This document shows, in pieces, positions 4,898 through 42,924 of a stretch of DNA of 64,000 nucleotides (the stretch's first letter is position 1; every line of letters starts with the position of its first letter). The notes below the pieces were generated by a model that saw nothing but the letters and a program-made list of their open reading frames with translations, made no database searches and was not told the DNA's origin. The stretch comes from Escherichia phage vB_EcoM_ESCO25, in the sequence record OM386656.1; one strand, 5' to 3'. The position numbers and the translations under genes were made by a program.

Positions 4898-6384
4898 TGG
4901 ATGAATATGGTTTGACAGATGCGGGATTTGTAATCCCTACTTTTGACGATGTTCTAAACAACTATATGACAGCAGTAAAAAATACATTTGGTGCAGATGC
5001 AGCCACTTCGGAAGACACTGTGATCGGGCAACTGTTTAGAATAATTGCATATACAGATTACACATTGTGGGAAGGTATGCAAGGAGTTTATAACACTCAA
5101 ACACTTGATGGTGCAGAAGGTATCTATCTTGACGAAATCTTTTCTAAGCGTGGTTTCTATAGAGCAGGGGCAGCAGCAAGTACAGGTTATGCATATGTTA
5201 AGAGTAATAACAAAGCAGCTTGGACTTATGAGCTAGGCACTGATATTTACTTCAACTCTGACAGTGATATGAACTACTATGTTAGCACACCAACCATGTT
5301 GAATGCTAAGATTGCAGCTTATCAAATATCTCGTGCTAATGCAACTGCTACAGGTGTTCCAAATATTACTTTTTATGCACAAAGTGCGGTAGACGGAGGA
5401 CTAAACAGTAAAACACTTGCCCCTGGTTCTTCTACATTTATAACCGATCTTGAAACTTTTATCAAGGCAAACTTAACAGAAGCTGATCGTAGTCTTGTAT
5501 TTTCTGATTCTGGTAACTTGTCAATTGGTTTTACTTCTTTAACTAGTGAGACTCCAGTTGGACTGGTAACGCCTATCAAATTTTATGCCAGTGTTCCGGT
5601 TGGGACCAAATGGAGTGAGATTCCAGTGGTTGCAGCAGAGAAAGGTTATAATCCGGTGGGTGTAGAGTCCATTACAGGTATCTCATCTACCTTTACAGGT
5701 TATCTGGATAGTGGTAACTTCTATTCGTTTTCTCCTGGTCGAGACGTTGAGACAGACGCAGAATTCCGCTCTCGTTTCAATGACAACGTTGATGAAGCTA
5801 ACGCAGGGACACGAGCAGCTATTGTGAAAGCACTACTGCTTACAGATGGTGTCACTAAGGTGAAGATTTATGATAACCCTACGTTACATGATCAAGAACA
5901 CGCTCCAGCTATGACTTTCCAGACTATAGTTTATGGTGGCAGTGCAGAAGAAATTGCAAATGTTATCTATAAAACCAAACCAATCAACACTTTGACACAC
6001 GGAACAACTAACATAACAGTTACAACAGAAGATGGAGGACAAGAAATTATTCGCTTCTCTCCTGGTGCTTCTGCTATGTATTCCGTAAAACTTGTTTATC
6101 AAACTGTCAACGGAACAACTTTAAGTGGAACAGAAAAACAAAACATCGTAGAAGCTTTACAAAACCTGCAAGCTTACTTTGAGTTAGGTTCTTCAGTAAC
6201 AAACGATCAAATCAAAGGTGTTATTTATGCAGCACTTGCTTTTGGACGCTTGACTTCTCTTCGTGTTTATGTTAAACTTAATACTGAGGATGACAGTAAA
6301 TATACAGAGAATAATATAGTTCCTGCTTATAATGTTGTCCCTTCTTTTGACCTTGATAACATTTCTTACGAGTATGGAGTGTAA
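4897..6384 (+). CDS. baseplate J-like (baseplate wedge) protein
   Basis: 495 aa from ATG 4897 (TAATG overlap with upstream stop, SD AAAGAGGA); N-terminal GLTDAGFVIPTFDDVLNNY resembles baseplate J family (by memory, not searched). Confidence 0.55.
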   Translation: MDEYGLTDAGFVIPTFDDVLNNYMTAVKNTFGADAATSEDTVIGQLFRIIAYTDYTLWEGMQGVYNTQTLDGAEGIYLDEIFSKRGFYRAGAAASTGYAYVKSNNKAAWTYELGTDIYFNSDSDMNYYVSTPTMLNAKIAAYQISRANATATGVPNITFYAQSAVDGGLNSKTLAPGSSTFITDLETFIKANLTEADRSLVFSDSGNLSIGFTSLTSETPVGLVTPIKFYASVPVGTKWSEIPVVAAEKGYNPVGVESITGISSTFTGYLDSGNFYSFSPGRDVETDAEFRSRFNDNVDEANAGTRAAIVKALLLTDGVTKVKIYDNPTLHDQEHAPAMTFQTIVYGGSAEEIANVIYKTKPINTLTHGTTNITVTTEDGGQEIIRFSPGASAMYSVKLVYQTVNGTTLSGTEKQNIVEALQNLQAYFELGSSVTNDQIKGVIYAALAFGRLTSLRVYVKLNTEDDSKYTENNIVPAYNVVPSFDLDNISYEYGV

Positions 6385-6386
6385 AA

Positions 6387-7016
6387 ATGGCAGTGAGTGT
6401 TGACCATGTAACAACTTGGGCCAGTATCAATGAAGACGTTAAAAACCTTCTGATTGAAGATTTTAAATCTTCTCCTAACATTGTCAAGCTCCTCTACATC
6501 GTATCCAGTGAAAAGCAAAAGATAGATCAGGCAATGATCTATCTTGCTAAACACCGCTTGATCTCCACAGCCACAGGCAAATACCTAGATATTCTAGGGG
6601 AAGAAATGGGGATCGAACGTAATGGCTCTGATGATGAAGAGTATAGAACAATATTAAAAATCAGGGCTTACCGCGTAGCCTCATCGGGGACTCGTGGTGA
6701 CATAATTGATATCTTCGCCCGTTTCACAGGAACAGAGCGTGAAACGCTTAATACTTACGTAGGTTTGAATAAAACCTTTGATGTGTTTTTCTACAACCTG
6801 TGTCTTCAATCTGATCAAGCTTTAGAGCAGTTGCTAAGTGTTTTCCCTATTATTAGTAGCTACCGTCTTGGAGCAAAAGCAGGATCAGCTTTTGGTTTTA
6901 GTTCTTATTATGCTACCAAACCGCCTCATGGTATTGGTGGTTTAGGTTCCCTGTACATGGAATCTACTGGGGATGAAACAGGACGCATGTGTACGCTTCT
7001 CAAGCAAATAGATTAA
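6387..7016 (+). CDS. hypothetical baseplate/tail protein
   Basis: 209-aa ORF tightly coupled to baseplate J-like gene. Confidence 0.5.
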   Translation: MAVSVDHVTTWASINEDVKNLLIEDFKSSPNIVKLLYIVSSEKQKIDQAMIYLAKHRLISTATGKYLDILGEEMGIERNGSDDEEYRTILKIRAYRVASSGTRGDIIDIFARFTGTERETLNTYVGLNKTFDVFFYNLCLQSDQALEQLLSVFPIISSYRLGAKAGSAFGFSSYYATKPPHGIGGLGSLYMESTGDETGRMCTLLKQID

Positions 7017-25185: not shown

Positions 25186-25464
25186 TTAAAATGGTTCGTT
25201 AGTCTCCATCATATATTCTGCTTCTAGTTCTTCCATGTGCTTTCTAAATTGGAAAGCAATTTCTGCTACAGTTACATTTAAATCTTTTTCAAAAACTTCT
25301 GTAGATCCTTCATAAAAACGAATACCGTCAATTAAAAGCCCTCCGTGGTAATCCCAATCGCTTTCACGAGAAAGTGGATTAGGTTCTTCATAATAGTAAT
25401 CCACCTCCACGACCAAGGCTTTCCCGTTACGAGTGGTGTATTCAAAATCAAAAGTGTTAATCAT
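25186..25464 (-). CDS. hypothetical protein
   Basis: 92-aa ORF between primase-helicase and glycosyltransferase genes. Confidence 0.5.
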   Translation of the reverse strand: MINTFDFEYTTRNGKALVVEVDYYYEEPNPLSRESDWDYHGGLLIDGIRFYEGSTEVFEKDLNVTVAEIAFQFRKHMEELEAEYMMETNEPF

Positions 25465-26408
25465 TATAGCTCCTCAAATAAAAGTCTACGACGCTCATTC
25501 AACACATCAATGTGATAATGAGTCCTGACATACTTAGCTAATGCTAATCCTTTCTCCATGCAAACATCGGGAGCACTTAATAAGTATTCCGTAATATCTT
25601 TCCACTCGGAAGGTGTTTCAGCAAAGAATAACAAATCTTTAAACTCTTGTGTATGATAATTCTCACGAGGAGAGCAGATTAAAGGTAAACCCTTAGCACC
25701 TGCCTCAAGAATTTTAAGATTGCTTTTTGCATTATTAAACACGTTATCGATCAATGGTGCAAGACTGATTTGATGACCATCGTAAGATTCCATGTAGTTG
25801 GCATATGGTCTTACACCTTCATAAACACAAGTTGGTGCTACATTTTCCCTGATTAAAGACCATTCACGACTACTTAAAACTTCAGAATCCCTACGAAAAC
25901 CACATATTGTAAGATCTTTACCAAAATCGGGCAAGATAGCCAAATCTTGTTTATGTGTTTCACTTCCAGCCCAGACTAATGGAGTTTTGGAGTAGCGATC
26001 ACGGGTCAACACAAATTGACCTTCATCGTAAGGAAGTCCATTAGGGATTATGTGCACATTATCATTGTATTGTGAAAGTTCAACTTGCAAGGCAGGTGTC
26101 GTAGTTGTAACAAGATCACTGTGCTCTAAAAACCATTTTAAATGTTCACGAATACCTGATTCAAAAATACCTTCTAACATGTGTCCTTTTGGAATAACTA
26201 AAGAGTCATCCAAATCCATAACCATTTTAAAGCCCAGGTTTTTAAGGGCTAAAAAGCCCTCTTTACCTTTTGTTGGCACTCCGTTAAAAACGAAAACGTT
26301 GTGTTTAGGTTGTGAAGAGAACTGCCTTGAGTAAGGCAGCACTACCCTATGGAAATCGCAGACACTATAATTGATTCCGTTACGATTGTCAAGAATTATT
26401 TGTCCCAT
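25464..26408 (-). CDS. glycosyltransferase (intact copy of tandem paralog pair)
   Basis: 314-aa ORF; C-terminal KSNLKILEAGAKGLPLICSP... resembles GT-B group-1 glycosyltransferase core; paralog immediately upstream. Confidence 0.6.
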   Translation of the reverse strand: MGQIILDNRNGINYSVCDFHRVVLPYSRQFSSQPKHNVFVFNGVPTKGKEGFLALKNLGFKMVMDLDDSLVIPKGHMLEGIFESGIREHLKWFLEHSDLVTTTTPALQVELSQYNDNVHIIPNGLPYDEGQFVLTRDRYSKTPLVWAGSETHKQDLAILPDFGKDLTICGFRRDSEVLSSREWSLIRENVAPTCVYEGVRPYANYMESYDGHQISLAPLIDNVFNNAKSNLKILEAGAKGLPLICSPRENYHTQEFKDLLFFAETPSEWKDITEYLLSAPDVCMEKGLALAKYVRTHYHIDVLNERRRLLFEEL

Positions 26409-26415
26409 ACTTCAC

Positions 26416-27364
26416 CTACAAACTTTCAATAACCTGGCGTCGCAATTCGTTTGCATCTGCCAGATTATAATGTGTTCGAACATGTTCCGCTAAGAACAAG
26501 CCGCGATCTTCCCGATAGTTCGGATTTCGAAGAAGCTTAACAATTTCGTAATGCCATTCTGCTTTATTCTCTGCATAAGCAACAGCGCGAGCATCTACAG
26601 GGTTAAAATAAGGTAATACCTTAGAACAAACAATCGGAATACCTTTTGCCCCCAGCTTCAAGGATTTTGAGATTACTTTTACAATTATTAAAATCATTAT
26701 CTACCAAAGGAGCTATAGCAATAGCATGACTTTCGTAAACACTCATGTAATTATCTAAATCTTTTACAGCAGCTTTATATTTGGCATTTGGTAAATTTCT
26801 ACGGATCTTAATCCACTCTTGCCCTGTGATACTCTGCGATGCTTCATATCCTGCAATAGTAAGAAGTTCATCATCGAAAGTATTAGAGACTAGTCGTAAA
26901 TCGGGTTCGTGACTAGCACCGCCAGCCCATACAACAGGGGTACCGGATGAACGATCATTTGACAAAGTGAATTGTCCGCTATCAAAAGGAAGTGCATTTC
27001 GGATCACAACAACATTCCTATTTAAGTGACGGATCTTATATGCCAAATATTCCGTAGTCACAATGACCACATCGGCAAGCTTAACCATAGCTACAATAGC
27101 ATGAGTGTTTGACTCATATAAACTTGCTAAATAATGTTCTGGATTAAGTTGGTAGAAATCATCTAAATCTACAACAATCTTAACACCTTGACGTTTCAGG
27201 GACAGAACATATTCTGCCCCTTTAGAATGAATACGGTTAAACACGACAACATCTTTCTTAGGCTGAAAATTATTGTTGTTAAATGGTATAACAATACGAT
27301 GATAATCACAACCACTGTGAGGTTTTGCATCAATTTTCAGTTTAGTCCATTTTTTATTTGACAT
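26416..27364 (-). pseudogene. glycosyltransferase paralog interrupted by a +1 frameshift in a G5/C5 homopolymer (or sequencing error / programmed shift)
   Basis: ORFs 26621..27403 and 26416..26697 together align to the intact paralog; frames switch at C5 run 26649-26653 (G5 on coding strand); four Gs would restore ...EAGAKGIPIVCSK... Confidence 0.6.
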
Positions 27365-28037
27365 GTGCCAGTGCCTCCTCATAAGAAATTCGGATTTTCC
27401 CATTTTTAATATCTTCTAAAGACGCTTTATATTCTTCCCAGTTAATGCCAATAGCAGCTTCTTTCTCTTCTTTTGTCAGATTAGCAAAAGGCATAGGATT
27501 GTTTCCAAAAACATCGTCTGGGTGGATATAAGCCATGATACGAAGTGGACAAGGTATTGCCTGAATGCCCTGATTCAAACCAGCAGCTTTCAAACGGTGT
27601 ACCCATTCAGCATCTTCAAAACCATAGCCGTGAGTGTAAGGGCGGAAATAACCCATCTTCTCAACAACGGCACGAGAATACATTGCAAATTGACACATTG
27701 CAAGTTCCCAGAGAATAACTTCTCCTTTACTCCCAACAACTTTATCTTTGAAATACTCCGGCATACCAAAGAAATCCCATCCTCCAGAGACAGCTTGATC
27801 TACAAAATATGTTTCCCATCCCTCCATGATTGGGTAGCAATCGTCGTCAAAAATAAACCAATAATCATAACCTTCTTCATAAAACTGGTGCATAAGTTCA
27901 TTCCTGGCGTAAGCTACACCTTTACGATCTGGATCGTTGAATACTCGAAAATCTGCATGTGGATCTGTTACAAGATAGTCTTTAAGTGGACGGACACCTA
28001 CAGTGATAACACCCACTCCGATTTTAATATTTTCCAT
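27354..28037 (-). CDS. putative glycosyltransferase, GT-A-like with DDD motif
   Basis: 227-aa ORF; WFIFDDDCYP acidic motif; adjacent to other glycosyltransferase genes. Confidence 0.5.
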   Translation of the reverse strand: MENIKIGVGVITVGVRPLKDYLVTDPHADFRVFNDPDRKGVAYARNELMHQFYEEGYDYWFIFDDDCYPIMEGWETYFVDQAVSGGWDFFGMPEYFKDKVVGSKGEVILWELAMCQFAMYSRAVVEKMGYFRPYTHGYGFEDAEWVHRLKAAGLNQGIQAIPCPLRIMAYIHPDDVFGNNPMPFANLTKEEKEAAIGINWEEYKASLEDIKNGKIRISYEEALAHVK

Positions 28038-29025: not shown

Positions 29026-29309
29026 CAGTGAATCTCCCCTAAAATGTTGTTTTGAGACATTACTGCGGAGCATTCTACAGCATCATGAGTCCTTGCAAAA
29101 CGCTCCCACAGCACAGCATCTACTTTAAGAACCATACAAGGATAAATACTGTCGTTGATCATATCAATGCTATATTTATCTACATCCTTTTCATCTTCCA
29201 TAAACAAAGTAGCGTATGCTTCCAAATGTTTACGGGTGTAGTATACGTCCTCTTCGGTAAGACCGACAACCAGGTAACTTGCTACAACAACAGTATTATC
29301 TTCTTGCAT
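29025..29309 (-). CDS. hypothetical protein
   Basis: Start moved to ATG 29309 (SD AAGGGGAG); 94 aa. Confidence 0.45.
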   Translation of the reverse strand: MQEDNTVVVASYLVVGLTEEDVYYTRKHLEAYATLFMEDEKDVDKYSIDMINDSIYPCMVLKVDAVLWERFARTHDAVECSAVMSQNNILGEIH

Positions 29310-29310
29310 T

Positions 29311-29832
29311 TTAACTCCCCTTTGGTAGATAGAAACCATGCACTTTATCTCGATAAACAAGACGCATATCACGCTCCCAGTGTGTCCTTATATTCCGTTT
29401 CTTGAAGTATAGAGCACCTTTAGTAACATCTAAAACAGACCGCAATTCAGGAAAATGTTTCTCTAAATAAAGTAAACGCTCCGCTATTGCTTTTGCTTCC
29501 TGCCACTTATCTTTCTCTGTCACGTTAAAAGTTTTCGCATATGAGAATTGCCCTTTCTGGAACAAGACTCCCTTGACTGTGTTAGGGAAGTAGGCATCAT
29601 TTCTTCTGTTGATTACCACATTCCCAACGGCATTCATTCCTTTTTTACCCAGACCGCGACCTTCTGCGTAAATTGCACAAGCTAATAGAATTTTATCATT
29701 ATATTGCTTTGTACATTTGTGAACTACTTTAGCGGTTTTTACGTTTGCAGCTTCGGCTTTCGCCACAACAGGTGTAAATGTAAAAGCAGTTAAGGATAGT
29801 AACGCAACTGTTACAAAGTTTTTTATCAGCAA
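29311..29832 (-). CDS. secreted cell-wall hydrolase, SleB/CwlJ-like (candidate endolysin)
   Basis: 173-aa ORF with TTG start after SD AAGGAGG; N-terminal signal-like LLSLTAFTFTPVVAKA; CAIYAEGRG...AVGNVVINRR motif. Confidence 0.6.
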   Translation of the reverse strand: MLIKNFVTVALLSLTAFTFTPVVAKAEAANVKTAKVVHKCTKQYNDKILLACAIYAEGRGLGKKGMNAVGNVVINRRNDAYFPNTVKGVLFQKGQFSYAKTFNVTEKDKWQEAKAIAERLLYLEKHFPELRSVLDVTKGALYFKKRNIRTHWERDMRLVYRDKVHGFYLPKGS

Positions 29833-29893
29833 ATTTTGCCTCCTTTTTAAGTTAACGAACTTCTAGTATAACACGATAGAGGCTTTATTGCAA

Positions 29894-29914
29894 GAGGGGG
29901 ACTTCTCCCCCCTC
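29894..29914 (-). promoter_or_regulatory. G/C hairpin downstream of terD (weak terminator?)
   Basis: GAGGGGG-ACTTCT-CCCCCCTC inverted repeat; no strong U-run. Confidence 0.35.
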
Positions 29915-29932
29915 AAAATCATTTGTTAATTA

Positions 29933-30535
29933 TTATGGACATTCATACCATTCTTTTTTACCACCGAAGGCCATCACCACATCGCAAATATCCAGACCAG
30001 CTTTACCTACACCATATGCTTTCAGCTTCCATTCTCCATCTTCACGAACCAGGGAAGCCACGTGGCAGATTGTGTTGCCAGCTACTTCAGGAGCCAGGAA
30101 GTCAAAATCCAGAATTTCCACATTGCGCTCGGAGTCGAAGATTTTAAGCATACCTTCAGAAGCATGACCAAAACGTTTCAGACCTGTATCATCATCAATG
30201 GTCAGAACAAAGGCAATCTCTTGTGCATCAGGAGAGATTTTAGCCAGAGTAATATCAATCTGCTCCATGCTGCCAGTTCCATCACGAACATCGTCACCAG
30301 CGAAGGTAGAACGTTCAGGATCAAACTTGTTAGCATAGCAAACCAGATGACGTGCAGACAGCATTTCAGGATTGCCAGCGGCATTGTGACGACAAACCAG
30401 TGCACTTACATCCAGATCCAGTTTAGAATCAGATTTCCAAGAGAATTCCAGACGCAGTTCTTTCAGAGCCGGAGCAACTTTCTTCAGGGAAATTTTTTCG
30501 CTAGAACCTTTTTTCAGGGAAATTTTATCAGTCAT
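29933..30535 (-). CDS. terD: TerD-family protein
   Basis: 200-aa ORF; GDDVRDGTGSMEQIDITL matches TerD acidic signature. Confidence 0.8.
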   Translation of the reverse strand: MTDKISLKKGSSEKISLKKVAPALKELRLEFSWKSDSKLDLDVSALVCRHNAAGNPEMLSARHLVCYANKFDPERSTFAGDDVRDGTGSMEQIDITLAKISPDAQEIAFVLTIDDDTGLKRFGHASEGMLKIFDSERNVEILDFDFLAPEVAGNTICHVASLVREDGEWKLKAYGVGKAGLDICDVVMAFGGKKEWYECP

Positions 30536-30550
30536 CTTTTGTCTCCTCTA

Positions 30551-30820
30551 TTATTTAAGTGTAATACCAGTTACAGTCAATTCTACTTCCAAAAGCTTAG
30601 ATGTGTTTTGGATTGATACTAATTGTGCATGATGGTTTAGTTCTACAGCAGAATAATCATTTTCCCCATCATCTACTTTTAAATAAACAATGATTTCACT
30701 AAGGTCTAAACCATTTTCGTCAAATGCATTTTCATAGACGAAAGTATCTCCTACATCCAAATCTTTAATGGTAAGGCATCGTTTATTTACTTTTTGCTCA
30801 TCAATTTCGAAGTTTAACAC
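30551..30820 (-). CDS. small hypothetical protein, paralog of 31842..32138
   Basis: 89-aa ORF; shares layout and C-terminal ...VTGITLK / ...VTNITLKK with neighbour paralog. Confidence 0.5.
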   Translation of the reverse strand: MLNFEIDEQKVNKRCLTIKDLDVGDTFVYENAFDENGLDLSEIIVYLKVDDGENDYSAVELNHHAQLVSIQNTSKLLEVELTVTGITLK

Positions 30821-31049
30821 TTCTTCCTCCTAATGTTATCTCCGGTTTGTATATACGAAGAATTATAGCATTTTCATTTTCTTTGTCAACCCATTCTTCA
30901 TAATCAGGCCATACATGAATCTCTACTCTACTTACAATATCTTCCATTCGCACAGTCCCAATGAAATACTCTTTGAGACTGCGCATAATGAAAGCTTCTC
31001 TCTCGCGCCAATAATTTTCTATGACTTGAGAGGCAAGCTCGTCGATCAT
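30801..31049 (-). CDS. hypothetical protein
   Basis: 82-aa ORF coupled to flanking genes. Confidence 0.45.
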   Translation of the reverse strand: MIDELASQVIENYWREREAFIMRSLKEYFIGTVRMEDIVSRVEIHVWPDYEEWVDKENENAIILRIYKPEITLGGRSVKLRN

Positions 31050-31840
31050 TTTTTAGCACCTACTTTAACAACCCACTCTCCGAACTCTTCAGATAAGAGT
31101 TTGTCATAAAGCTCTGAATCTGTCAAGTCTAAATCTTTAATGCCAATAAAACCAACATTATCATAAGCATTTGCCAGTTCTTTCAGGAAGCCAAACTTCT
31201 CATTACCAACGCCAACCATGAACCAATAAATAGGTTTATTCTTATTCTCTTCAATAAGACGACGAACAGCACTAGGATCACCATTCTCACCATCCGTCTG
31301 GAAGAATACAACACCAGGGGTAACGTCAGCACCTGGTTCAGACACAGCTACAACCTTTTCACGCTCTACAGATACTGTTTCAGTTTTACCAAGCAGACGA
31401 TTAAAGAAGCCTTTCTTTGGAGCCTCCTCTTGTACCACTTGTTTAGTGGTAATATATTTGGTAACAGTGCCAAAATACTCATCGTAGATATCTGCCATTA
31501 CAGGGGCGTAATTTGTTCCACCTCCGATACGAACATTGCGCATACATTTACCAACATAGTCATCGTAAACGTCTGCTGTTGCTGGAGTAAGCTCTTGGGA
31601 ACTCGTATTGAAGGCCCACATATCAATTTGTTGATTATCGTCGAACAGCATACCAAAAGGAAGCAGTTTACCTACAAAATCACTCACTACCCCACTAGAA
31701 TATAGACCATGCATACTACCAGAAATATCTAGAGCACATGCTACACGAAGAACAATCTTACCTTCATTCAGGTTCTTATTCTTTTTCAGAGAGAAAGCAA
31801 GGTTTTCTTGACGTTTTTTCAGGCTGATTTTCTCGGACAT
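31046..31840 (-). CDS. von Willebrand factor A (vWA) domain protein, Ter-associated
   Basis: 264-aa ORF; MIDAS motif ALDISGSM; N-terminal EKISLKK like TerD N-terminus. Confidence 0.7.
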   Translation of the reverse strand: MSEKISLKKRQENLAFSLKKNKNLNEGKIVLRVACALDISGSMHGLYSSGVVSDFVGKLLPFGMLFDDNQQIDMWAFNTSSQELTPATADVYDDYVGKCMRNVRIGGGTNYAPVMADIYDEYFGTVTKYITTKQVVQEEAPKKGFFNRLLGKTETVSVEREKVVAVSEPGADVTPGVVFFQTDGENGDPSAVRRLIEENKNKPIYWFMVGVGNEKFGFLKELANAYDNVGFIGIKDLDLTDSELYDKLLSEEFGEWVVKVGAKK

Positions 31841-31841
31841 A

Positions 31842-32138
31842 TTATTTCTCCTTCTTAAGTGTAATATTGGTAACTTCTAAATCTACTTCCACCATATTTG
31901 TATCTGGCGGGATGCAATGAGTATAGCCTCGTTGTGCTAGTGATCCATTAATACAGATCGCACTGTTTGTGGAATTTTTAATGAACACCAAGTTACGGTA
32001 GGTATCCAACCCTGCGTCTTCATAGGCATCATAATACATGAATGTGGCCCCTATGCCAAGATCTTCGAAAGCAATAGGTAAATCCTGACACTTTTCTTCT
32101 TGAATATTGAATCTAAACACGCATACCTCCTCTACCAA
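31842..32138 (-). CDS. small hypothetical protein, paralog of 30551..30820
   Basis: 98-aa ORF. Confidence 0.5.
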   Translation of the reverse strand: MVEEVCVFRFNIQEEKCQDLPIAFEDLGIGATFMYYDAYEDAGLDTYRNLVFIKNSTNSAICINGSLAQRGYTHCIPPDTNMVEVDLEVTNITLKKEK

Positions 32139-32676
32139 TTTTGAAGCCCAAATCGTAAGCTTCTTTAGTGATCTTTTGCAACTCGCTTATAGGAAGTGTT
32201 ACAAGAGGATCATCTTCTTCAATTTCCATCTTGTCATCTTCTGTTTCAATGAGAGTATTATGCACTTTATGATAAGGGTTGTCAACACGTTTAAACTTAT
32301 TCTTTTCTGTGCTGAAGAAACAATCTGGATCTTCTTCACCATCACCCCAACCTTGATTAGGATCTCTGTCAGATTGTTCTGTAGGGATCTCACCTGTAAA
32401 GTACTCTTCCAGCACCATAGCGATGCCGTCCCTTGGATTTGAGGAATGCATCAAATCACAAACCTTACTCCAATCCATAGCCCAGTCGAACCGTTCACGA
32501 ACGCCATTTTCATCCTCTTTTCCAGAGAAAACACAACCATAACTATCATAGTTGCCATACATCTCTTCAATAACAACACCGTCCTTCAAAAGAAAGAGGT
32601 AGCAAGGTGATCCGTCGAAAGAAGTAGAAAGGGCAGCTTTGCCCGATTCTTTGCACAAAAAGCTAAAACAACCCAT
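32113..32676 (-). CDS. hypothetical acidic protein
   Basis: 187-aa ORF. Confidence 0.45.
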   Translation of the reverse strand: MGCFSFLCKESGKAALSTSFDGSPCYLFLLKDGVVIEEMYGNYDSYGCVFSGKEDENGVRERFDWAMDWSKVCDLMHSSNPRDGIAMVLEEYFTGEIPTEQSDRDPNQGWGDGEEDPDCFFSTEKNKFKRVDNPYHKVHNTLIETEDDKMEIEEDDPLVTLPISELQKITKEAYDLGFKIGRGGMRV

Positions 32677-32879
32677 TACAAACCCTCCTTCAGATTATCA
32701 AGAGCTACAGTGGTTTCACAAAATTCTCCATAAGCTTTATGATGTTCCAGAAAAGCTTCGGGTCCACCCCAATCATTGTCTTGTGTATTCCAGCCATCAA
32801 TAAAAGCATCTTCAATGATTGTGATCAGTTCTTGTCGGGTTAACTGGATAATATTAGGGTCGTTATCGTAGTTAAACAT
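32676..32879 (-). CDS. hypothetical protein
   Basis: 67-aa ORF. Confidence 0.45.
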   Translation of the reverse strand: MFNYDNDPNIIQLTRQELITIIEDAFIDGWNTQDNDWGGPEAFLEHHKAYGEFCETTVALDNLKEGL

Positions 32880-33045
32880 CCTCTTCCTCCTCTAAAATAT
32901 GGAACCCGTAATTACAATAGTCCTGAAAGGTTTCGTGTGCAAGATCTTCTATATCCTCTTGAGACATATCATCTTCAATTTCGATATCCACAACCTCATT
33001 GCATCCACACCAAGCAGTTTCAATATTCACTCGTAATATTTTCAT
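32872..33045 (-). CDS. small acidic hypothetical protein (57 aa)
   Basis: ORF below track cutoff filling the gap; stop overlaps next start. Confidence 0.35.
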   Translation of the reverse strand: MKILRVNIETAWCGCNEVVDIEIEDDMSQEDIEDLAHETFQDYCNYGFHILEEEEDV

Positions 33046-33242
33046 TACTCCTCCTCCTCATTGAAGTCAATATCTGCAAGGAGTTCGAATTTACGGAAGT
33101 TACGACAACCTTCATAAATATAACAATCACGACAAACTGCTAGAACACTTGGGGGATATATGCCTCCCATCGGCGCGAATCGTTTTTCGTCATCATAACG
33201 GACACCAATGTCCTCATCAATTATATAGATACGGATTCTCAT
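33045..33242 (-). CDS. hypothetical protein
   Basis: 65-aa ORF with Cys pair. Confidence 0.45.
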   Translation of the reverse strand: MRIRIYIIDEDIGVRYDDEKRFAPMGGIYPPSVLAVCRDCYIYEGCRNFRKFELLADIDFNEEEE

Positions 33243-34351
33243 TTACCAAGCCCTCGTTTCACAGCAGCTACCATCCCGTCTTCCAAAGATTGAACTTCAT
33301 TAATATAATCAACACGAGCAGCACGGGCTTCCGTATTGATGCGGTTAGTTTCTTCCAACATCTTAACCAAGTTTTCCTGATCGTGACGCAGAGTTTCAAT
33401 ATCCAACACTTGACGGTTAGCCAGTGCTGCTGCTTCGATCTGATTCTGTGTGGCAAGATCGCTACCCAGTTTAATTGCCAGGTTAAATTCATCAAGAACG
33501 TTATTCTGCGTCTCTGCTGCTTTCATTTGACGTAAGCTCTCGATATACATTGAGAAGTTAGCAGAGTAAGCAGGAATAACATTATTTACTATGTTACGCG
33601 CAGATCGCATTAAGCTTGCAGAAACTTTTTGCATACCTTGTACACGCGGTCCCATTTGGACACACAGTAGGCGCAATGCTTTTAAATCTGCAATACGAAT
33701 CTCCAGAAGATCCAAAGTATCTCGGATCACTTGTCGCTGTTCTACTGCATCTTCTGGAAGAGCAGCCAAAGCTTGTTCTTCTTTTTCATAGGTTGCTGTT
33801 AGAAGCTGCATATCTCGGTTCAAACTTGCAGCATATTGTCCAATAGCTTGATGTAGCTTTTCAAGATATACCAAGGAATCTTCTTCTTTGCGAATATCCA
33901 TTTGAAGGTTTTTTACCAACTCTTCAATACGGTTATTAACATTATCAAACTCCCCAAACAGATCTTCTTTCATACCCATAACTTTTTTAATGAGTTTAGT
34001 AATACCCTTGCTTTGTTTAATAGAGTTTGGATCAAGTTGTTTTGCCTGTTTAATCAAAGCTGTGAGTCGTTCACTCATCTGATCGCCTTGATTACTACGT
34101 TGATGTTTTAATACCTCGGCATTCAAGGAACGCAAGGTTGTTCCTGCCTCTGCCCCAATCTCTTCGATCTCCTGTCGGGTCATAGAAGGCAAAACTGGAA
34201 CTTCTTGCGGTGCCGCTGGTGCATAAACAGGACTGGCATCTAACACGCTTGGAGCGAATACAGATTTACTTGCATCTGTTGTTGCAGCAAATACGCTCAT
34301 TTCAGGTTTCTTCTGACAGCCAGTAGCTGCTTTTAAAAATGGACTTGTCAT
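33239..34351 (-). CDS. telA: TelA-like (toxic anion resistance) protein
   Basis: 370-aa helical/coiled-coil ORF; family assignment by resemblance and Ter-cluster context. Confidence 0.55.
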   Translation of the reverse strand: MTSPFLKAATGCQKKPEMSVFAATTDASKSVFAPSVLDASPVYAPAAPQEVPVLPSMTRQEIEEIGAEAGTTLRSLNAEVLKHQRSNQGDQMSERLTALIKQAKQLDPNSIKQSKGITKLIKKVMGMKEDLFGEFDNVNNRIEELVKNLQMDIRKEEDSLVYLEKLHQAIGQYAASLNRDMQLLTATYEKEEQALAALPEDAVEQRQVIRDTLDLLEIRIADLKALRLLCVQMGPRVQGMQKVSASLMRSARNIVNNVIPAYSANFSMYIESLRQMKAAETQNNVLDEFNLAIKLGSDLATQNQIEAAALANRQVLDIETLRHDQENLVKMLEETNRINTEARAARVDYINEVQSLEDGMVAAVKRGLGK

Positions 34352-34938
34352 TCTTCATTCTCCTCTTCTGCATCTCTTATATATGGTGAAACACCGTACT
34401 CTTTAGCTACTTTAACCCAATCGTCCCATTTATACAACCATAATTTTCCTTCGGTCCCTTCTTTATCTGATTTCAACCACATATTAGGTTGCTTACCTGG
34501 GTACATGCGATTAGGTTTACGATTATAACCTCTAACACATCTTGTCGCAAACCTATCTACCAGAACAAGAACATATTTATATTCGTGGTTCAACGGCTCT
34601 TTGGAAGTGGCTTTAGGATTAGCCCCTAACTCTGCTGCCAGTTTTTGCCAATGAGCACCGTGTCTACTAAACTTACCCATACAACCATCAATAGCATGAG
34701 CAATTTCGTGCTTCATTGTATCCACGATCATATCTCTTGTAGAGTTCTTATGCAAGTGCCAATTTACAACAACAATTTTATCTCGGTAGTTGCACCAACC
34801 GAAAGAGTTATTCACTTTGTTTCTAACACAAGCTTTATATCCTGCTTCACGTAACATGTTGTAGTAAACAGGAAAATCTTCTTTTATTTCCTGCATCACT
34901 TCCCACCACAAGAGTTGCAAGTCTCTCTCGGTATACAT
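34348..34938 (-). CDS. SprT-like zinc metallopeptidase
   Basis: 196-aa ORF with HEIAHAIDG HExxH motif and downstream HGAHW. Confidence 0.55.
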   Translation of the reverse strand: MYTERDLQLLWWEVMQEIKEDFPVYYNMLREAGYKACVRNKVNNSFGWCNYRDKIVVVNWHLHKNSTRDMIVDTMKHEIAHAIDGCMGKFSRHGAHWQKLAAELGANPKATSKEPLNHEYKYVLVLVDRFATRCVRGYNRKPNRMYPGKQPNMWLKSDKEGTEGKLWLYKWDDWVKVAKEYGVSPYIRDAEEENEE

Positions 34939-36532: not shown

Positions 36533-36558
36533 ATAAAATAGCCTCCCGAAGGAGGCTC
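36533..36558 (-). terminator. rho-independent terminator after terC
   Basis: On - strand AGCCUCC-UUCG-GGAGGCU then AUUUUAUAG. Confidence 0.6.
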
Positions 36559-36563
36559 ATTTA

Positions 36564-37538
36564 TTAAACAGTAGCTTCTTCTTTTTCAGGGAAGATAAAG
36601 CTTGCAATAACACCAAGAGATAATGTGCCTAGAACAATCATCAGACTTACGTTAGGGGAAATATCATGCGGGAGGAATGACCACTTGGCATGAAGTGTTT
36701 CACCGAACGGGTGATACATAAGTTTAGCACCAACAAACACCAGAACCACAGCAACAGCTTTCTCTAAGTGAACCAGATATTTCACAGCTACACTTAACAC
36801 AAAGAAAAGTGCACGTAAACCAAGAACAGCCATCAGCATTGCAGAATAAACTAGCAGAGGTTCTTGTGTCACACCGATCACAGCCGGAACTGAATCAAAA
36901 GAGAAGACAATATCTGTAAGCTCAATAACAAACACACAAAGAAGAGCAGGAGTTGCATATTTAATACCATTCTTAATGGTGATGAACTTTTCACCATCCA
37001 GTGCATTGTGCACAGGCAGAACTTTACCTACTAAACGAACAGCCCAATGTTTAGAGTAATCAATATCCTCTTCTTTGTCACCACCTTTGATGATAGCCAC
37101 GGCAGACCAAGCTACAATCAAACCGAACAACACTTGGACCGACCAATGAAGGTTAAACAAAGCGGTCCCTGCTGCAACAAAAATACCTCGGAAGACAATG
37201 GCTCCTGCAATCCCCCAAAGTAGAATCTTATGTTGGAGATGTGTGCTCTTAATTCCAAAGCTTGCAAAAATTGCCATGAACACCATTAGGTTATCTACAG
37301 AAAGACTCTTTTCCAACACATAGCCACTTAGGAAAAGCGCGGCAAACTCTTTACCATGTTCTACCCAAATGAATGCGTAATACCCTAAAGCTAAAGCAAT
37401 CCAAAAAACAGACCAAAGCAAAGCAGATTTAATTCCAATTTCTTTATTCTCTTTATGACCAAAGAAATCGATACCAATAGACAATGCTAAAATACCAACT
37501 AAAACAACTACATCAATAATTGGGAAACCGAGTTGCAT
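36564..37538 (-). CDS. terC: TerC-family integral membrane protein
   Basis: 324-aa polytopic ORF with LEKSLSVDNLMVF motif; own promoter-hairpin unit upstream. Confidence 0.8.
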   Translation of the reverse strand: MQLGFPIIDVVVLVGILALSIGIDFFGHKENKEIGIKSALLWSVFWIALALGYYAFIWVEHGKEFAALFLSGYVLEKSLSVDNLMVFMAIFASFGIKSTHLQHKILLWGIAGAIVFRGIFVAAGTALFNLHWSVQVLFGLIVAWSAVAIIKGGDKEEDIDYSKHWAVRLVGKVLPVHNALDGEKFITIKNGIKYATPALLCVFVIELTDIVFSFDSVPAVIGVTQEPLLVYSAMLMAVLGLRALFFVLSVAVKYLVHLEKAVAVVLVFVGAKLMYHPFGETLHAKWSFLPHDISPNVSLMIVLGTLSLGVIASFIFPEKEEATV

Positions 37539-37851: not shown

Positions 37852-38325
37852 TTAAAGTTTATAAATAGTCACATCGTGACCTGTTTTTACTAAAGTTTCT
37901 TCAATCATCACTTGGATGATAGCCCAATTACCTCCGGCATGTCCCGCTCCAATCATAGGTAAACCGATCTTACATTTTTGGTCACGGAGAAGCAAATCAT
38001 TAGCCATAGCTATTAGTGCATCGTAAAGTGCATCATAGTCCAACTGACGACCTTTAGCATTGTATCCGTAACGGTATTGCCCGTATAGATTATATACCAA
38101 AGGGTCTGATTGTTCGTCTGGCACCCCTAAACTAAAAGAACCTAACTTACTTTGATCACCAGCCATTGTGTCTAAATCTGCCGCATATGCATAAGGGAAT
38201 GCTCGTTTAATTTGCGGAGCAATTCCTGCTCCCATATTACACATACAATTGCAACAATGAGCAATAACAGTTACTTCACCTGCTTTAGCGGCATCAATAA
38301 GATTACCTGTTTTCATTTTAAGCAT
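37852..38325 (-). CDS. macro-domain protein (ADP-ribose binding/hydrolase-like)
   Basis: Start moved to ATG 38325 (SD AAGGAG); TGNLIDAAKAGEVTVIAHCCNCMCNMGAGIA and IGLPMIGAGHAGG parallel macro-domain motifs. Confidence 0.6.
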   Translation of the reverse strand: MLKMKTGNLIDAAKAGEVTVIAHCCNCMCNMGAGIAPQIKRAFPYAYAADLDTMAGDQSKLGSFSLGVPDEQSDPLVYNLYGQYRYGYNAKGRQLDYDALYDALIAMANDLLLRDQKCKIGLPMIGAGHAGGNWAIIQVMIEETLVKTGHDVTIYKL

Positions 38326-38338
38326 TTTTAGCTCCTTA

Positions 38339-39166
38339 TTACAGAATGTGTTGTTTTGTGTAACGATCCAAGAATTCAAAGTTTTCAGCATACTTTGAAA
38401 TTCGGTTGTAACCTTCTCCCAAACATCCGAAGAAAAGTTGCTCTACATAGTAGTGTGGCAATTGGCTAAGAATGATTTTGAAGTCTTCGTGATTTTGGCC
38501 CATAAGATACTTAATAGGACGAACAAGACACTGTGCATCACGTTCTTCATTAATCATTTTAACAAACGCTTCTGGTGTATTGATGTAGTTAAAATTCAGT
38601 TTAGCTTCAGTATCTGCTTGATTACCTTCATATTTTGCAAAATACAAGAAGTAAACATCATTTTTAACTTGATTTTCATCAAGAATCTCAATCAGTTTGT
38701 CTTCATGAGTTCCGGTGATATTTACATCATCAATGAACACAAGCTTCTTATCACCCCAGAATTCTTTGTTGCAGTAGAATGTATCCCCATCAATAAGTTT
38801 CTTACGACTAGCTTTATCCAAGAAACCATAATCGTTGATATAGCTAACTTTACGATGAATAATATCCAGTTCTGCTGAACGACCTTGATCATATTGTGCT
38901 TGCAACATATTAAAGTAATTAATAAAATGATCTGTCATCATTGTTGCAGCATTGTGCACATGGTTATAAGGAGAAGGGATGATAACAAATTGTTCCCCAA
39001 TATGTTTCATTGCCACTTGAGCAAAAAACTGAAGTACCAATTCTTTACCCATACGACGCGCAGCTTGGTTACTACCAAATTTCAATTTTGAATAGTCTTT
39101 GATATCAAAAGTAGCAGTTTCCAGGTCATCAAATTTATTTGCAAAAATTTGAGTTTGATTACGCAT
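38339..39166 (-). CDS. phosphoribosyltransferase-like protein (Ter-associated PRTase)
   Basis: 275-aa ORF; KLVFIDDVNITGTH resembles PRPP-binding motif. Confidence 0.5.
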   Translation of the reverse strand: MRNQTQIFANKFDDLETATFDIKDYSKLKFGSNQAARRMGKELVLQFFAQVAMKHIGEQFVIIPSPYNHVHNAATMMTDHFINYFNMLQAQYDQGRSAELDIIHRKVSYINDYGFLDKASRKKLIDGDTFYCNKEFWGDKKLVFIDDVNITGTHEDKLIEILDENQVKNDVYFLYFAKYEGNQADTEAKLNFNYINTPEAFVKMINEERDAQCLVRPIKYLMGQNHEDFKIILSQLPHYYVEQLFFGCLGEGYNRISKYAENFEFLDRYTKQHIL

Positions 39167-40437: not shown

Positions 40438-40662
40438 TTAAAATGGAAGTCTTTGAAGTTCATCTCCTCCGATATCAAGTAATTTAGCAACATCTCGATC
40501 AGAAAGCAACTCTTTTCTTTGTAAAATATCCACAAGGGTTGCAAGAATGTCCTTAACGTCCCGATCATTGTTCTTCAAAAGTTCTCCTGCCGTCCCTACC
40601 CTATCTCCTACAGCAAAATATGTAACCATAAAACCTCCTACGCTAATCTGATTGCCAACCAC
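40438..40662 (-). CDS. small hypothetical protein (uncertain)
   Basis: 74-aa ORF overlapping nrdG end by 20 nt. Confidence 0.3.
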   Translation of the reverse strand: MVGNQISVGGFMVTYFAVGDRVGTAGELLKNNDRDVKDILATLVDILQRKELLSDRDVAKLLDIGGDELQRLPF

Positions 40663-41113
40663 TCGCCGTTTTGGTCCATAATCTTTGATTATCTGACCCT
40701 CTGAAAGGTTTTGTGGTTGGATTGTTTATTTCATACTTTCCGTCTACAATAATGTCAACAAGATTTTTAATATACAAAGGCACTTCCTCAAAAGTATATC
40801 CTGTATACACCATTATATCTTTGCTTGACCCATAAACGTCTCTAACCTTTTCTATAAGGTTTTTAACATTGTAAATATTCTGCGGATCTAATGGTTCTCC
40901 TCCTAAAATTGTTAAACCTTTTACAAACGGTCTTGACAAATCTTTTAAAACTTGCTCTACATTTTCGTTAGTGAACGGTTTCCCATAAGAATAAGACCAG
41001 GCTTTCTGGTTAAAACAGCCACGACAACCGTGGCTACAACCACTAACCCAGAGGGAGCACCTAACTCCCTCACCATTAATAAGATCTACAGGTTCATATC
41101 CTGCAAAATTCAA
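40643..41113 (-). CDS. nrdG: anaerobic ribonucleotide reductase activating protein (radical SAM)
   Basis: 156-aa ORF; CSLWVSGCSHGCRGCFN cysteine cluster; directly downstream of nrdD. Confidence 0.85.
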   Translation of the reverse strand: MNFAGYEPVDLINGEGVRCSLWVSGCSHGCRGCFNQKAWSYSYGKPFTNENVEQVLKDLSRPFVKGLTILGGEPLDPQNIYNVKNLIEKVRDVYGSSKDIMVYTGYTFEEVPLYIKNLVDIIVDGKYEINNPTTKPFRGSDNQRLWTKTASGWQSD

Positions 41114-42924
41114 AGATGTTTCTCCCTTTGCAAAACTTCCTGCATTTTACCTTTGTTATAAGGCCGTGAATTAGGGGCAGAAAGATACCCTGATACACGT
41201 CTAACTACAGAAATAGTTTCTTCTTCATGGTTGCCACAATTAGGACACTCAAACCCTTTAGCCGTTGCCTTAAATTCTCCATGAAAACCACACTTAAAGC
41301 ATTGATCCACGGGCTGATTAATACCAAAATAGTGAATATGTTCATAAGCGTAGTCTACTAAAGTCTCCAAAGCTTCTAAGTTATTCTTTAAGTTTGGTGT
41401 TTCGACATAACTTATGTTACCACCATTGCTAATCTGTGCAAAACCTGCTTCATAATCCCATTTTTCAAAAGGATTTGTTACCAACCATACAGGTTGATGA
41501 AAAGAATTAGTAAGATAGTCTCTTTCTACCAGACCTGGATATTTTTCATTTAAAGCTGTTGCAAATTTATAGCACAAGGATTCTGCTGGAGTTCCATAAA
41601 GACTAAATGCCAACTTAGATCGTTCTTTAAACACAGCACACACATCTTTCATATGTTGCAGAATGTTTTTACCTAGTTCCTTTTTATCTTTTTCCTCTGG
41701 ATAAAGGATTTCCAAAGCTTCGGCAAGACCTACATAACCAATACTAATAGAAGCATAACCACCTTCAAACAAAGCACCAATTTCATCGTTGGCATTTAAA
41801 CGCGCTAAAGCCCCTTCCATGAAAAGAATAGGGTTTTCAGATGCTTTGGTATGTCTGATACGGTTTACACGTAGCATGTGAGCATCGTAGGCTATCTCCA
41901 TATGTTTATTAAGAAGATCGGTGAAAGATTCTCCTTTACTTCTCGCTTCCGCAGCAATCAGAGGCAAGTTGATAGAAACTACTCCAAGGTTGAATCGTCC
42001 ATCATATTTTTCTCCTTGTTCGGTGGCATAGTACGACAAAAAGGAACGACAACCCATACTCGTAACGGTACCATCTGCTGATCCCGTAACTTCTTTGTTC
42101 AAAGGAACAGAAATAAAATCTGGATAAATACGATCAGCACAACATGCCAAAGCTTGTTGCTTAAGGTCGTAGTTAGGATCACTAGGTTTCATGTTAACAC
42201 CTTCTTGTAAAAAGAAAATAACTTTAGGGAATACAGGCGTTACATGATCTTTACCTAGACCGTTACTATGCACTTTAAGATAGTTAGCTGTGATCATTCT
42301 GCCAAAAACAGAGGTATCCAGACCCATACTGATTGTAATAAAAGGAGATTGTCCATTAACACTCATTAAAGTGTTAACCTGATACAAAAGAGTTTGCATA
42401 GCGTCATATACATCTTGTTCGGTCATTTCTAGGGCTTCTTTCCTTGCATAACAACCGTAGCGACGTTTGGTTATCTCCATGTTTTTAAGGAAACTGGCTT
42501 CAACATAAGGACTAAGACCTTTATCAATGTGCGCACACGTCTGACCTCCATACTGACTGGAGGCAACAGCTTGGATGATTTGAGTTAGCACTGTAGTAGC
42601 TACTCCAATAGATTTTGGTTTTTCTATCTGTGCAGCACCGATCTTAAAACCATTCTCTAACATATCTTGATAATTAACAAGACAACAGTTTGTAAGAGGA
42701 GAGAGCAGATAATCCAAGTCGTGAATATGTCCAAAACCTTCTGTATGCCATTCTGACAAGTTTTTTGGCAGTATCTGTGTCATTGCCATATGTTTGCTTA
42801 AAATCCCCGCCAAGAGATCCCTGTGCGTGTTAACAAGGTGGGAAGGTTTGTTTGCATTCTCTCTAGTGTATGTTTCTGAAGTGCGATCTAAAAAAGAAAA
42901 AACATCTTGGTACAAATCTTTCAT
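41110..42924 (-). CDS. nrdD: anaerobic ribonucleoside-triphosphate reductase (class III)
   Basis: 604-aa ORF; C-terminal CxxC...CxxC then glycyl-radical motif RRVSGYL. Confidence 0.85.
   Translation of the reverse strand: MKDLYQDVFSFLDRTSETYTRENANKPSHLVNTHRDLLAGILSKHMAMTQILPKNLSEWHTEGFGHIHDLDYLLSPLTNCCLVNYQDMLENGFKIGAAQIEKPKSIGVATTVLTQIIQAVASSQYGGQTCAHIDKGLSPYVEASFLKNMEITKRRYGCYARKEALEMTEQDVYDAMQTLLYQVNTLMSVNGQSPFITISMGLDTSVFGRMITANYLKVHSNGLGKDHVTPVFPKVIFFLQEGVNMKPSDPNYDLKQQALACCADRIYPDFISVPLNKEVTGSADGTVTSMGCRSFLSYYATEQGEKYDGRFNLGVVSINLPLIAAEARSKGESFTDLLNKHMEIAYDAHMLRVNRIRHTKASENPILFMEGALARLNANDEIGALFEGGYASISIGYVGLAEALEILYPEEKDKKELGKNILQHMKDVCAVFKERSKLAFSLYGTPAESLCYKFATALNEKYPGLVERDYLTNSFHQPVWLVTNPFEKWDYEAGFAQISNGGNISYVETPNLKNNLEALETLVDYAYEHIHYFGINQPVDQCFKCGFHGEFKATAKGFECPNCGNHEEETISVVRRVSGYLSAPNSRPYNKGKMQEVLQREKHL

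Follow-up and report, generated by a model that had tools for sequence, protein, structure and literature searches.

What are the two small open reading frames that stand ahead of Ter-type genes in a phAPEC8-like coliphage (Phapecoctavirus), and what could they contribute to the genes that follow them? Both lie on the minus strand of the window, by which we mean the whole 64-kb stretch of phage DNA that was analyzed. A sequence-only reading of this DNA had taken them for parts of a duplicated cassette, each copy consisting of a small protein and a TerD-like effector. Here they are called A and B.

Ter systems, which include TerD, TerF (vWA), TelA and TerC proteins as well as PRTases, were reportedly first described in 2012 by Anantharaman, Iyer and Aravind, in connection with stress response, tellurite resistance and phage inhibition. 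They occur widely, and how they work is still not understood. To our knowledge, phage-borne Ter modules have so far been discussed only by means of comparative genomics.

Such modules, abbreviated phage Ter operons, are described by Iyer et al. 2021 (PMC7824862), and superinfection exclusion or membrane/stress protection is proposed there as their role; here and below we refer to the excerpts of that paper on which we draw. The window matches this description with a single block of genes for TerD, vWA-TerF-like, TelA, TerC, PRTase_3 and SprT-like proteins, in which the order is PRTase, Macro, TerC, SprT, TelA, vWA-TerF and TerD (Table 1). The Ter components enumerated in those excerpts do not include the small beta protein encoded in the window.

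Table 1. Genes and predicted promoters of the Ter-like module in the window.
Feature	Coordinates	Strand	Characteristics
TerD-domain protein	29933..30535	-	200 aa; PF02342 (3.2e-28); second cistron after A
Small paralog A	30551..30820	-	89 aa; GTG start; AGGAGG ribosome-binding site; pI 4.26
82-aa ORF between vWA and A	30801..31049	-	phrog_22387; overlaps vWA stop by 4 nt and A start by 20 nt; contains A promoter
Predicted sigma-70 promoter of A	30862..30889	-	TTGACA-16-TGcTATAAT; perfect consensus; ~40 nt upstream of A start
vWA-TerF-like protein	31046..31840	-	264 aa; PF10138 (1.6e-37); DxSxS MIDAS 'DISGSM'; second cistron after B
Small paralog B	31842..32120	-	92 aa from GTG 32120; pI 4.53
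187-aa protein	32113..32676	-	phrog_14928; phi92 gp175 homolog; overlaps B start by 8 nt; contains B promoter
Predicted sigma-70-like promoter of B	32257..32285	-	TTGACA-17-CATAAT; 11/12; ~135 nt upstream of B start
TelA-like protein	33239..34351	-	PF05816 (3.2e-33)
SprT-like metallopeptidase	34348..34938	-	PF10263 (4.2e-9)
TerC-family membrane protein	36564..37538	-	PF03741 (3e-40)
Macro-domain protein	37852..38391	-	PF01661 (9.6e-5); upstream end of Ter-like module
ComF-like PRTase_3	38339..39166	-	PF15610 (2.7e-41); upstream end of Ter-like module

The extent of A stands as it was first read, and B needs a shorter frame. B had been given 98 aa from a TTG at 32138; this start is less probable, and translation most likely begins at the GTG, since GAGGAGG is located 5 nt upstream of it, ESCO13 gp221 is annotated with 279 nt and all orthologs begin there. 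The heptapeptide that had been placed at the C-terminal ends of both proteins is indeed common to them; in B, however, it falls short of the extreme end, as this protein terminates with ...VTNITLKKEK. Similarity of the two is by no means confined to this peptide. BLASTP aligns them without a gap with 27/89 identical residues (30%, E=1e-12), and their local BLOSUM62 score of 116 compares with 25.8 +/- 4.8 in 2000 shuffles (z=18.8; still 15.7 after removal of the C-terminal 12-15 residues). The profile of the protein family phrog_11278, 92 positions long, matches A over residues 1-89 (profile 1-89, E 7e-45) and B over residues 8-98 of the 98-aa reading (profile 2-92, E 3.6e-48). Judged by these alignments, A and B are full-length paralogs. 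Among the 612 six-frame ORFs of the window the family profile detects exactly these two copies and no third paralog. Each of them directly precedes a Ter-type gene, as had been noticed: vWA starts 1 nt past the stop codon of B, its Shine-Dalgarno sequence being embedded in the KKEK codons, and 15 nt separate the stop codon of A from the ATG of TerD. A and TerD share one reading frame, with two stop codons between them.

These proteins belong to an already catalogued family of hypothetical proteins, so that the gain of the present analysis lies in context and not in discovery. Both are full-length members of phrog_11278 (phi92 gp174, phAPEC8 K7QLS7, ESCO13 gp221 and gp224), annotated as 'hypothetical protein'; more than 60 Phapecoctavirus genomes encode hypothetical proteins, likewise annotated, that share 96-99% identity with them. 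What is added to phrog_11278 is the division into A and B clades, distant metagenomic members, linkage to vWA/TerD, predicted promoters and a copy range of 1-3. A search of 1.84 billion representative proteins returned about 20 matches to the small proteins, and every match whose contig was looked up comes from the same group of large phages; no homologs were found among these representatives outside the phAPEC8/phi92-like group. The family spans large myoviruses of the phAPEC8/phi92-like type together with relatives known from metagenomes. Four larger candidates from the same search were set aside. P0022, P0024 and P0030 are internally repetitive (with Ig, cadherin or fn3 repeats in P0024 and P0030, and only summed weak matches to unrelated Pfam families in P0022), and P0028 is built of a 93-aa unit present in seven identical copies; their scores were treated as inflated sums of weak repeat matches and not as signs of homology. 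Other searches were narrower in yield: a word-indexed homolog search recovered near-identical sequences only, a locus search of IMG/VR with the alignment A1 gave just three Stephanstirmvirinae-type loci, and a metagenome scan with a divergent subgroup had no matches. No publication on the two proteins came up when the literature was searched.

Extended-family members are 87-93 aa long and all 28 of those aligned are acidic, with pI of 4.3-5.3. Conserved positions, all present in both A and B, are M1, F4, L21-x-x-G24-[DE]-T-F27, G37-L-D39, K48, N62 and V83. Scans of A and B with Pfam, NCBIfam and PADLOC yielded nothing beyond a sub-threshold DUF5006 match, and PDB sequences, searched with a profile, returned nothing but noise (E>0.7). 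The small proteins do not appear to be diverged versions of their neighbors either: PF02342 does not match them and hhalign of the family against TerD of the window gives a probability of 0.2%; for vWA the value is likewise 0.2%, with no DxSxS motif in the family alignment. No relationship to CcrColossus gp223 was detected by hhalign.

AF2 models, with pLDDT of 84.6 for A (pTM 0.76, seven beta strands) and 81.9 for B, predict that the two proteins share a compact all-beta fold of six to seven strands. The structural comparison that the sequence-only reading had suggested bears out their kinship, as the best BFVD match of the B model is an independent model of the phAPEC8 copy of A (TM 0.77-0.79, E 4.7e-6). 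A fold search of the PDB gave no significant match (best hits E 0.45-5, TM 0.32-0.47, probability at most 0.69); Foldseek matches to SH3-like small beta-barrels, including SH3, Tudor and ribosomal L2 barrels, are weak and none is significant. Other structural neighbors in BFVD are uncharacterized small proteins (55-95 aa) of unrelated phages, such as N4 gp21 and proteins of T7-like and N4-like phages, many of them with TM of 0.5-0.75; at 12-25% identity, this likeness need not mean homology. The predicted fold therefore offers no functional clue as modelled.

With paralogy established, one can ask how far the duplication reached. If a small protein and a TerD-like effector had been copied as one unit, two parallel arrays of promoter, small gene and Ter gene would be expected, and the window does contain them; the N-termini of vWA and TerD moreover share a M-x-x-K-I-S-L-K-K...SLKK motif. 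This motif, however, also occurs in CcrColossus, the sole genome without the small family in which it was checked, and vWA-TerF-like (PF10138) and TerD (PF02342) proteins are distinct domains from different Pfam families, so only the small gene is duplicated. A-type and B-type proteins form separate clades in a neighbor-joining tree, with A outside a B clade that includes the phi92 and 05F01 proteins; the split is old, and these two single-copy phages retain both Ter genes. Relatives with one small gene per vWA-TerD pair, or with tandem small genes, do not fit a copied pair, nor does the 82-aa ORF between the two units of the window, a sequence with no relationship to the small proteins (hhalign probability 0.3%). 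Copying of the whole two-gene cassette is thus scarcely credible. All that vWA and TerD have in common is the short (I/V)SLKK...SLKK stretch at their N-termini, a general feature of both families.

New here is the finding that, as far as can be told from sequence, each small gene heads a separate unit with a putative host-type sigma-70 promoter; the promoter calls are consensus matches backed by conservation, and both overlap coding sequence. The A promoter is located within the 3' end of the 82-aa ORF, with a predicted transcription start near 30855, and is the sole 12/12 match in the window, where 0.09 would be expected; sites with at least 11/12 matches number only 13. It is kept exactly in ESCO13, phiWec179, ECO340P2, L015, L020 and L021, despite the fact that the A protein is just 43-49% identical in phiWec179, L015, L020 and L021. 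The B promoter lies within the 3' part of the upstream 187-aa gene, whose product has no Pfam, NCBIfam or PADLOC match. It is kept in phi92, KKP_3264 and ECO340P2, and in phiWec179, which is without the 187-aa gene, it is found as an intergenic TTGACA-17-GATAAT.

Selection on the small genes can be compared with that on their neighbors. In diverged comparisons their dN/dS is 0.17-0.40 (0.4 for A versus L020), which together with homologs recognizable to about 25-30% identity argues that the small ORFs are real genes. TerD and TelA have dN/dS of 0.02-0.06, and the small genes are several-fold faster at non-synonymous sites; TerD is fully conserved (100%) across nearly all records of Phapecoctavirus and shares 81% identity with its phi92 counterpart. 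These ratios indicate purifying but relaxed selection on the small proteins. The 82-aa ORF, found only in genomes with an A copy, has dN/dS of 0.2-0.4.

Relaxed constraint relative to the neighbors, very short gaps and a vWA ribosome-binding site inside B could mean that the ORFs are translated leaders, chiefly setting vWA and TerD translation by coupling, with largely dispensable products. We regard this as very improbable. The confidently predicted shared fold (pLDDT 82-85), the core and polar positions conserved over the full length of 28 diverged members and the dN/dS of 0.2-0.4 all speak for selection on the protein, and TerD does without such a leader in phi92 and 05F01; in phi92 it has its own predicted promoter and no small gene ahead of it.

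In all 16 distinct contexts examined, the small gene (X) adjoins vWA-TerF-like and/or TerD, while its position varies and its copies number 1, 2 or 3. The window has the order B-vWA-82aa-A-TerD; phi92, KKP_3264 and 05F01 have X-vWA-TerD; further types are vWA-X-TerD, vWA-X-X-TerD with tandem small genes and X-X-vWA-80aa-X-TerD with three of them. On short contigs, tblastn detected X-TerD in L008 and vWA-X-TerD on the cut contigs L009 and L011. All contexts fall in one broadly syntenic phage group (TelA...vWA...TerD...Hydrolase_2), so the vWA/TerD linkage could reflect inherited synteny and not functional coupling. Neither CcrColossus (TelA-vWA-membrane-TerD) nor MT836648, which has a bacterial-type TelA-TerD-TerD-TerD cluster, contains a member of the family; TerD and vWA hence do not need the small protein in general, and by this comparison it is not a core component of Ter systems at large.

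The same data can be viewed in a different light. A and B may be independent early ORFans for host takeover or anti-defence, which act on host or competitor targets and stay beside vWA/TerD only through inheritance of the block. They evolve faster than all Ter neighbors: where TerD is 91% identical, A is 43% and B 54% identical, and in ECO340P2 B forms a local divergence hot spot, 84-87% identical between flanks of 99%. The copy number of 1 to 3, absence from the Ter clusters of CcrColossus and MT836648 and structural neighbors among small proteins of unrelated phages would also be in keeping with such a role. Yet adjacency to vWA/TerD outlasts rearrangements that put the small gene before vWA, between the two genes or in tandem, with or without the 80-82-aa ORF, which is not obviously expected of a passive passenger. 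The gaps of 1 nt and 15 nt predict translational coupling to the Ter genes, and dN/dS below 0.5 gives no overall sign of positive selection. No PADLOC or other family match points to a defence or anti-defence role; PADLOC-DB has no match for A, B, the 82-aa and 187-aa ORFs, TerD, vWA or TelA. On balance, independent ORFans are a rather unlikely explanation, albeit one to be taken seriously.

We tentatively propose, at somewhat less than even chances, that this small acidic all-beta family belongs integrally to the phage Ter-like module, serving as a lineage-specific partner or adaptor of vWA/TerD. The small proteins would then be co-produced with vWA and TerD, in amounts proportional to theirs. 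Transcription would proceed from the predicted promoters and, these being of host sigma-70 type, would probably take place early in infection. A and B might bind vWA/TerD as adaptors, assembly factors or regulators specific to this lineage, and might thereby take part in whatever the phage Ter module does. They would represent its faster-evolving, copy-number-variable component, set on a conserved TerD/vWA/TelA/TerC core.

A more specific version of the adaptor proposal can be formulated, although we hold it to be improbable. As dedicated, rapidly evolving adaptor subunits, the acidic beta-barrels would bind the basic (I/V)SLKK...SLKK peptides at the N-termini of the two Ter proteins, with A-type members recognizing TerD and B-type members vWA, and would couple the TerD/vWA/TelA/TerC core to variable targets in the host or in competitor phages, with 1-3 copies tuning specificity. 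If this were true, TerD or TerF would gain its first defined specific protein partner, and Ter function during infection would become genetically accessible.

Should the small proteins prove to be unrelated early ORFans, the finding would be an ordinary one. As it stands, a lineage-specific family attached to vWA-TerF/TerD, with its own predicted promoters and variable copy number, may provide a cheap experimental entry to Ter systems.

Over 29300..33300 the window shares 99.9% identity with Escherichia phage AV125 and 99.3% with ESCO13, and more than 60 phAPEC8-like phages (genus Phapecoctavirus, subfamily Stephanstirmvirinae) match it at 95% identity or above. The genes considered here are tightly packed and all lie on the minus strand. 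TerD and the vWA-TerF-like protein, together with TelA, a SprT-like peptidase, TerC, a Macro-domain protein and PRTase_3, constitute an abbreviated Ter system, of the same kind as those noted in phages by Iyer et al. 2021 (PMC7824862). The hairpin that directly follows the TerC stop codon is perfect, GC-rich and followed by a T-rich tail; it is likely an intrinsic terminator ending the TerC transcript and separating TerC from the downstream module genes. Farther away, a glycosyltransferase gene is broken by a 1-nt homopolymer insertion; its ESCO13 counterpart is a single 315-aa CDS (gp232), and the split either stems from an error in sequencing or marks a genuine frameshift or pseudogene.

Features of the Ter module and its surroundings (window coordinates)
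Feature	Position	Strand	Remarks
Intact glycosyltransferase paralog	25464..26408		adjoins the split gene
Split glycosyltransferase gene	26416..27403	-	260-aa and 93-aa ORFs
Frameshift site	26649..26653		C5 run; C4 in ESCO13
TerD-domain protein	29933..30535	-	PF02342, 3.2e-28; 15 nt after A
TerD N-terminal double motif	30470..30535
Small gene A	30551..30820	-	89 aa
82-aa ORF	30801..31049	-	phrog_22387; between vWA and A, overlapping both; unrelated to the A/B family
Perfect sigma-70 consensus	30889..30862	-	TTGACA-16-TGcTATAAT
vWA-TerF-like protein	31046..31840	-	PF10138, 1.6e-37; 1 nt after B stop
vWA N-terminal double motif	31780..31840
Small gene B	31842..32120	-	92 aa, almost certainly from GTG 32120
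187-aa ORF	32113..32676	-	phrog_14928; overlaps B start
Putative B promoter	32285..32257	-	TTGACA-17-CATAAT (11/12)
TelA, SprT-like peptidase, TerC, Macro-domain protein, ComF-like PRTase_3	farther upstream	-
Hairpin after TerC	36540..36557	both	AGCCTCC-CGAA-GGAGGCT
NrdD (anaerobic ribonucleotide reductase) and radical-SAM activase	40643..42924	-	604 aa and 156 aa; few genes upstream of the Ter module

The sequence-only reading had singled out two small paralogous ORFs, A and B, each directly ahead of a Ter-type gene, and both are present in these positions. BLASTP aligns them without gaps over 89 residues at 30% identity (E=1e-12). In a shuffle test their similarity reaches z=18.8 and is still 15.7 after removal of the similar C-terminal ends, so it is full-length and extends beyond the C-terminal heptapeptide. 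Both match phrog_11278 ("unknown function"; 7e-45 for A, 3.6e-48 for B), and a profile of the family finds exactly two copies among the 612 six-frame ORFs of the window. The 98 aa first assigned to B (31842..32138) need correction, because the GTG has a GAGGAGG ribosome-binding site 5 nt ahead of it, ESCO13 gp221 is annotated from this codon and all orthologs start there. Both proteins do carry the C-terminal VTxITLK-type stretch first pointed out, but B runs on to ...VTNITLKKEK; the extra KKEK codons contain the vWA Shine-Dalgarno sequence.

The small gene abuts the vWA-TerF-like gene, TerD or both in every context recovered, while order and copy number vary. With X for any family member, the arrangement is X-vWA-TerD in phi92, Serratia phage KKP_3264 and Klebsiella phage 05F01 with its relatives; vWA-X-TerD in five metagenomic lineages; vWA-X-X-TerD, with tandem paralogs between vWA and TerD, in related loci L012 and L014; X-vWA-(80-82 aa)-X-TerD in the window, phiWec179, ECO340P2 and locus L020; and X-X-vWA-80aa-X-TerD, with three copies, in L025. 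The last is a 56-kb Logan contig (SRR12532581), in which 4728..6582 holds two tandem B-type genes before vWA and one A-type gene before TerD. The proposed duplication of a two-gene cassette, small protein plus TerD-like effector, fails: vWA and TerD differ in domain, the small gene alone is duplicated, and single-copy relatives retain both Ter genes.

In a neighbor-joining tree (200 bootstraps), genes upstream of vWA form one clade (87% for its core, 51% including the 05F01 group) and A-type genes a separate one (72%), with the vWA-X-TerD forms basal. These clades place the A/B split before the divergence of Phapecoctavirus and Justusliebigvirus, so that it is no recent tandem event. The phi92-like phages either lost A and the 82-aa ORF together or never had them.

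The vWA-TerF-like and TerD N-termini have a common basic double motif, M-x-x-K-(I/V)-S-L-K-K ... (I/V)-S-L-K-K, found in every locus checked (the window, L002, L004, L010, L014, L018, L019, L022 and L024), including that of CcrColossus, a Caulobacter phage without the small family. It may reflect an N-terminal strand pair common to both proteins, or a docking peptide that they share.

The sole perfect sigma-70 consensus of the 64-kb window (0.09 expected by chance) sits about 40 nt ahead of the A start, within the 3'-terminal part of the 82-aa ORF. The perfect element occupies the same place in ESCO13, phiWec179, Escherichia phage ECO340P2, one IMG/VR contig and two metagenomic contigs; in the four diverged ones among these (phiWec179 and loci L015, L020 and L021) A shares only 43-49% identity and the codons around the element have changed. 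The putative B promoter, one of 13 sites in the window matching at least 11 of 12 positions, is conserved in phi92, KKP_3264 and ECO340P2, and phiWec179, without the 187-aa gene, keeps it as intergenic TTGACA-17-GATAAT. The vWA-TerD spacer of phi92 contains TTGACT-17-TAAAAT. Consensus matches and their conservation thus predict two parallel units, P-B-vWA(-orf82) and P-A-TerD, for which the promoter type would imply early timing. L014, a distant metagenomic relative, has a second perfect TTGACA-N16-18-TATAAT directly upstream of TerC (3359..3386), which suggests that strong promoters of the host type generally drive Ter-module genes in this phage group.

AF2 models both proteins confidently as a compact all-beta domain (pLDDT 84.6 and pTM 0.76 for A, pLDDT 81.9 for B), and in BFVD the B model has as its best match phAPEC8 copy A, which was modelled independently (TM 0.77-0.79, rmsd 2.4 A, E 4.7e-6). 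That A and B are purely leader ORFs is unlikely given this shared fold and their full-length conservation. Solved structures gave no significant match (best E 0.45 or worse, TM 0.32-0.47), SH3, Tudor and ribosomal L2-type barrels being among the best, and BFVD neighbours at TM 0.5-0.75 are uncharacterised 55-95-aa proteins from many unrelated phages, such as N4 gp21. The fold therefore suggests no more than a small barrel that binds proteins or ligands.

By tblastn against 50,697 phage records the family is confined to Stephanstirmvirinae, with two places per genome in Phapecoctavirus and one in phi92-like Justusliebigvirus and Klebsiella phage 05F01. Among 1.84 billion representative proteins, a full HMMER profile search gave 27 matches, about 20 of them 87-93 aa long. 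Large matches were rejected, their scores being inflated by weak matches summed over repeats: P0024 and P0030 are internally repetitive (Ig, cadherin or fn3 repeats), and P0028 (658 aa) scored only in this way. P0028 repeats a 93-aa unit exactly, seven times in tandem and with Met at the start of every copy, and is probably artefactual, produced when a small circular or repeated element was assembled. All 28 aligned members are acidic (pI 4.3-5.3). Pfam, NCBIfam, PADLOC and PDB sequences hold no match, and we found no literature on these proteins. Records MG065650, MG065639, MG065656, OP562383 and MH252123 carry the labels of Campylobacter phages, an Acinetobacter phage and Klebsiella phage ZCKP1; in this region their matches are to E. 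coli phages of the phAPEC8 or phi92 type (98% DNA identity for MG065650 and ZCKP1, protein level for the others); these host labels look doubtful, unless the hosts share near-identical phages.

Identity to the window is 91% for TerD, 90% for TelA, 73% for vWA, 54% for B and 43% for A in phiWec179, and 90, 89.5, 83, 50 and 49% in L020. Pairwise dN/dS in diverged comparisons is 0.17-0.40 for the small genes versus 0.02-0.06 at equal depth for TerD and TelA, which indicates purifying selection relaxed several-fold. B of ECO340P2 (L006 3001..3273) is 84-87% identical to that of the window (dS 0.31) between flanking 187-aa and vWA genes that are 99% identical; the pattern resembles a patch of local recombination or a divergence hot spot confined to B. 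Fast evolution, varying copy number, ORFan-like structural neighbours and absence from the Ter modules of other phages, such as CcrColossus (TelA-vWA-membrane-TerD), and from a bacterial-type TelA-TerD-TerD-TerD contig all favour independent early ORFans held nearby by inherited synteny, the main competing explanation, which we consider rather doubtful. Best supported, if still tentatively, is that A and B serve the phage Ter module as accessory proteins specific to this lineage, and as partners of vWA and TerD. They would be expressed along with vWA and TerD, with their translation coupled, and, judging from linkage, would most likely bind them.

Many genomes already have the small genes annotated as hypothetical proteins, and one PHROG already groups them. 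Added here are their Ter linkage across arrangements, dedicated putative promoters, an old A/B split and a copy number of 1 to 3. The gain is modest: a phage Ter module that may possess a private small subunit.
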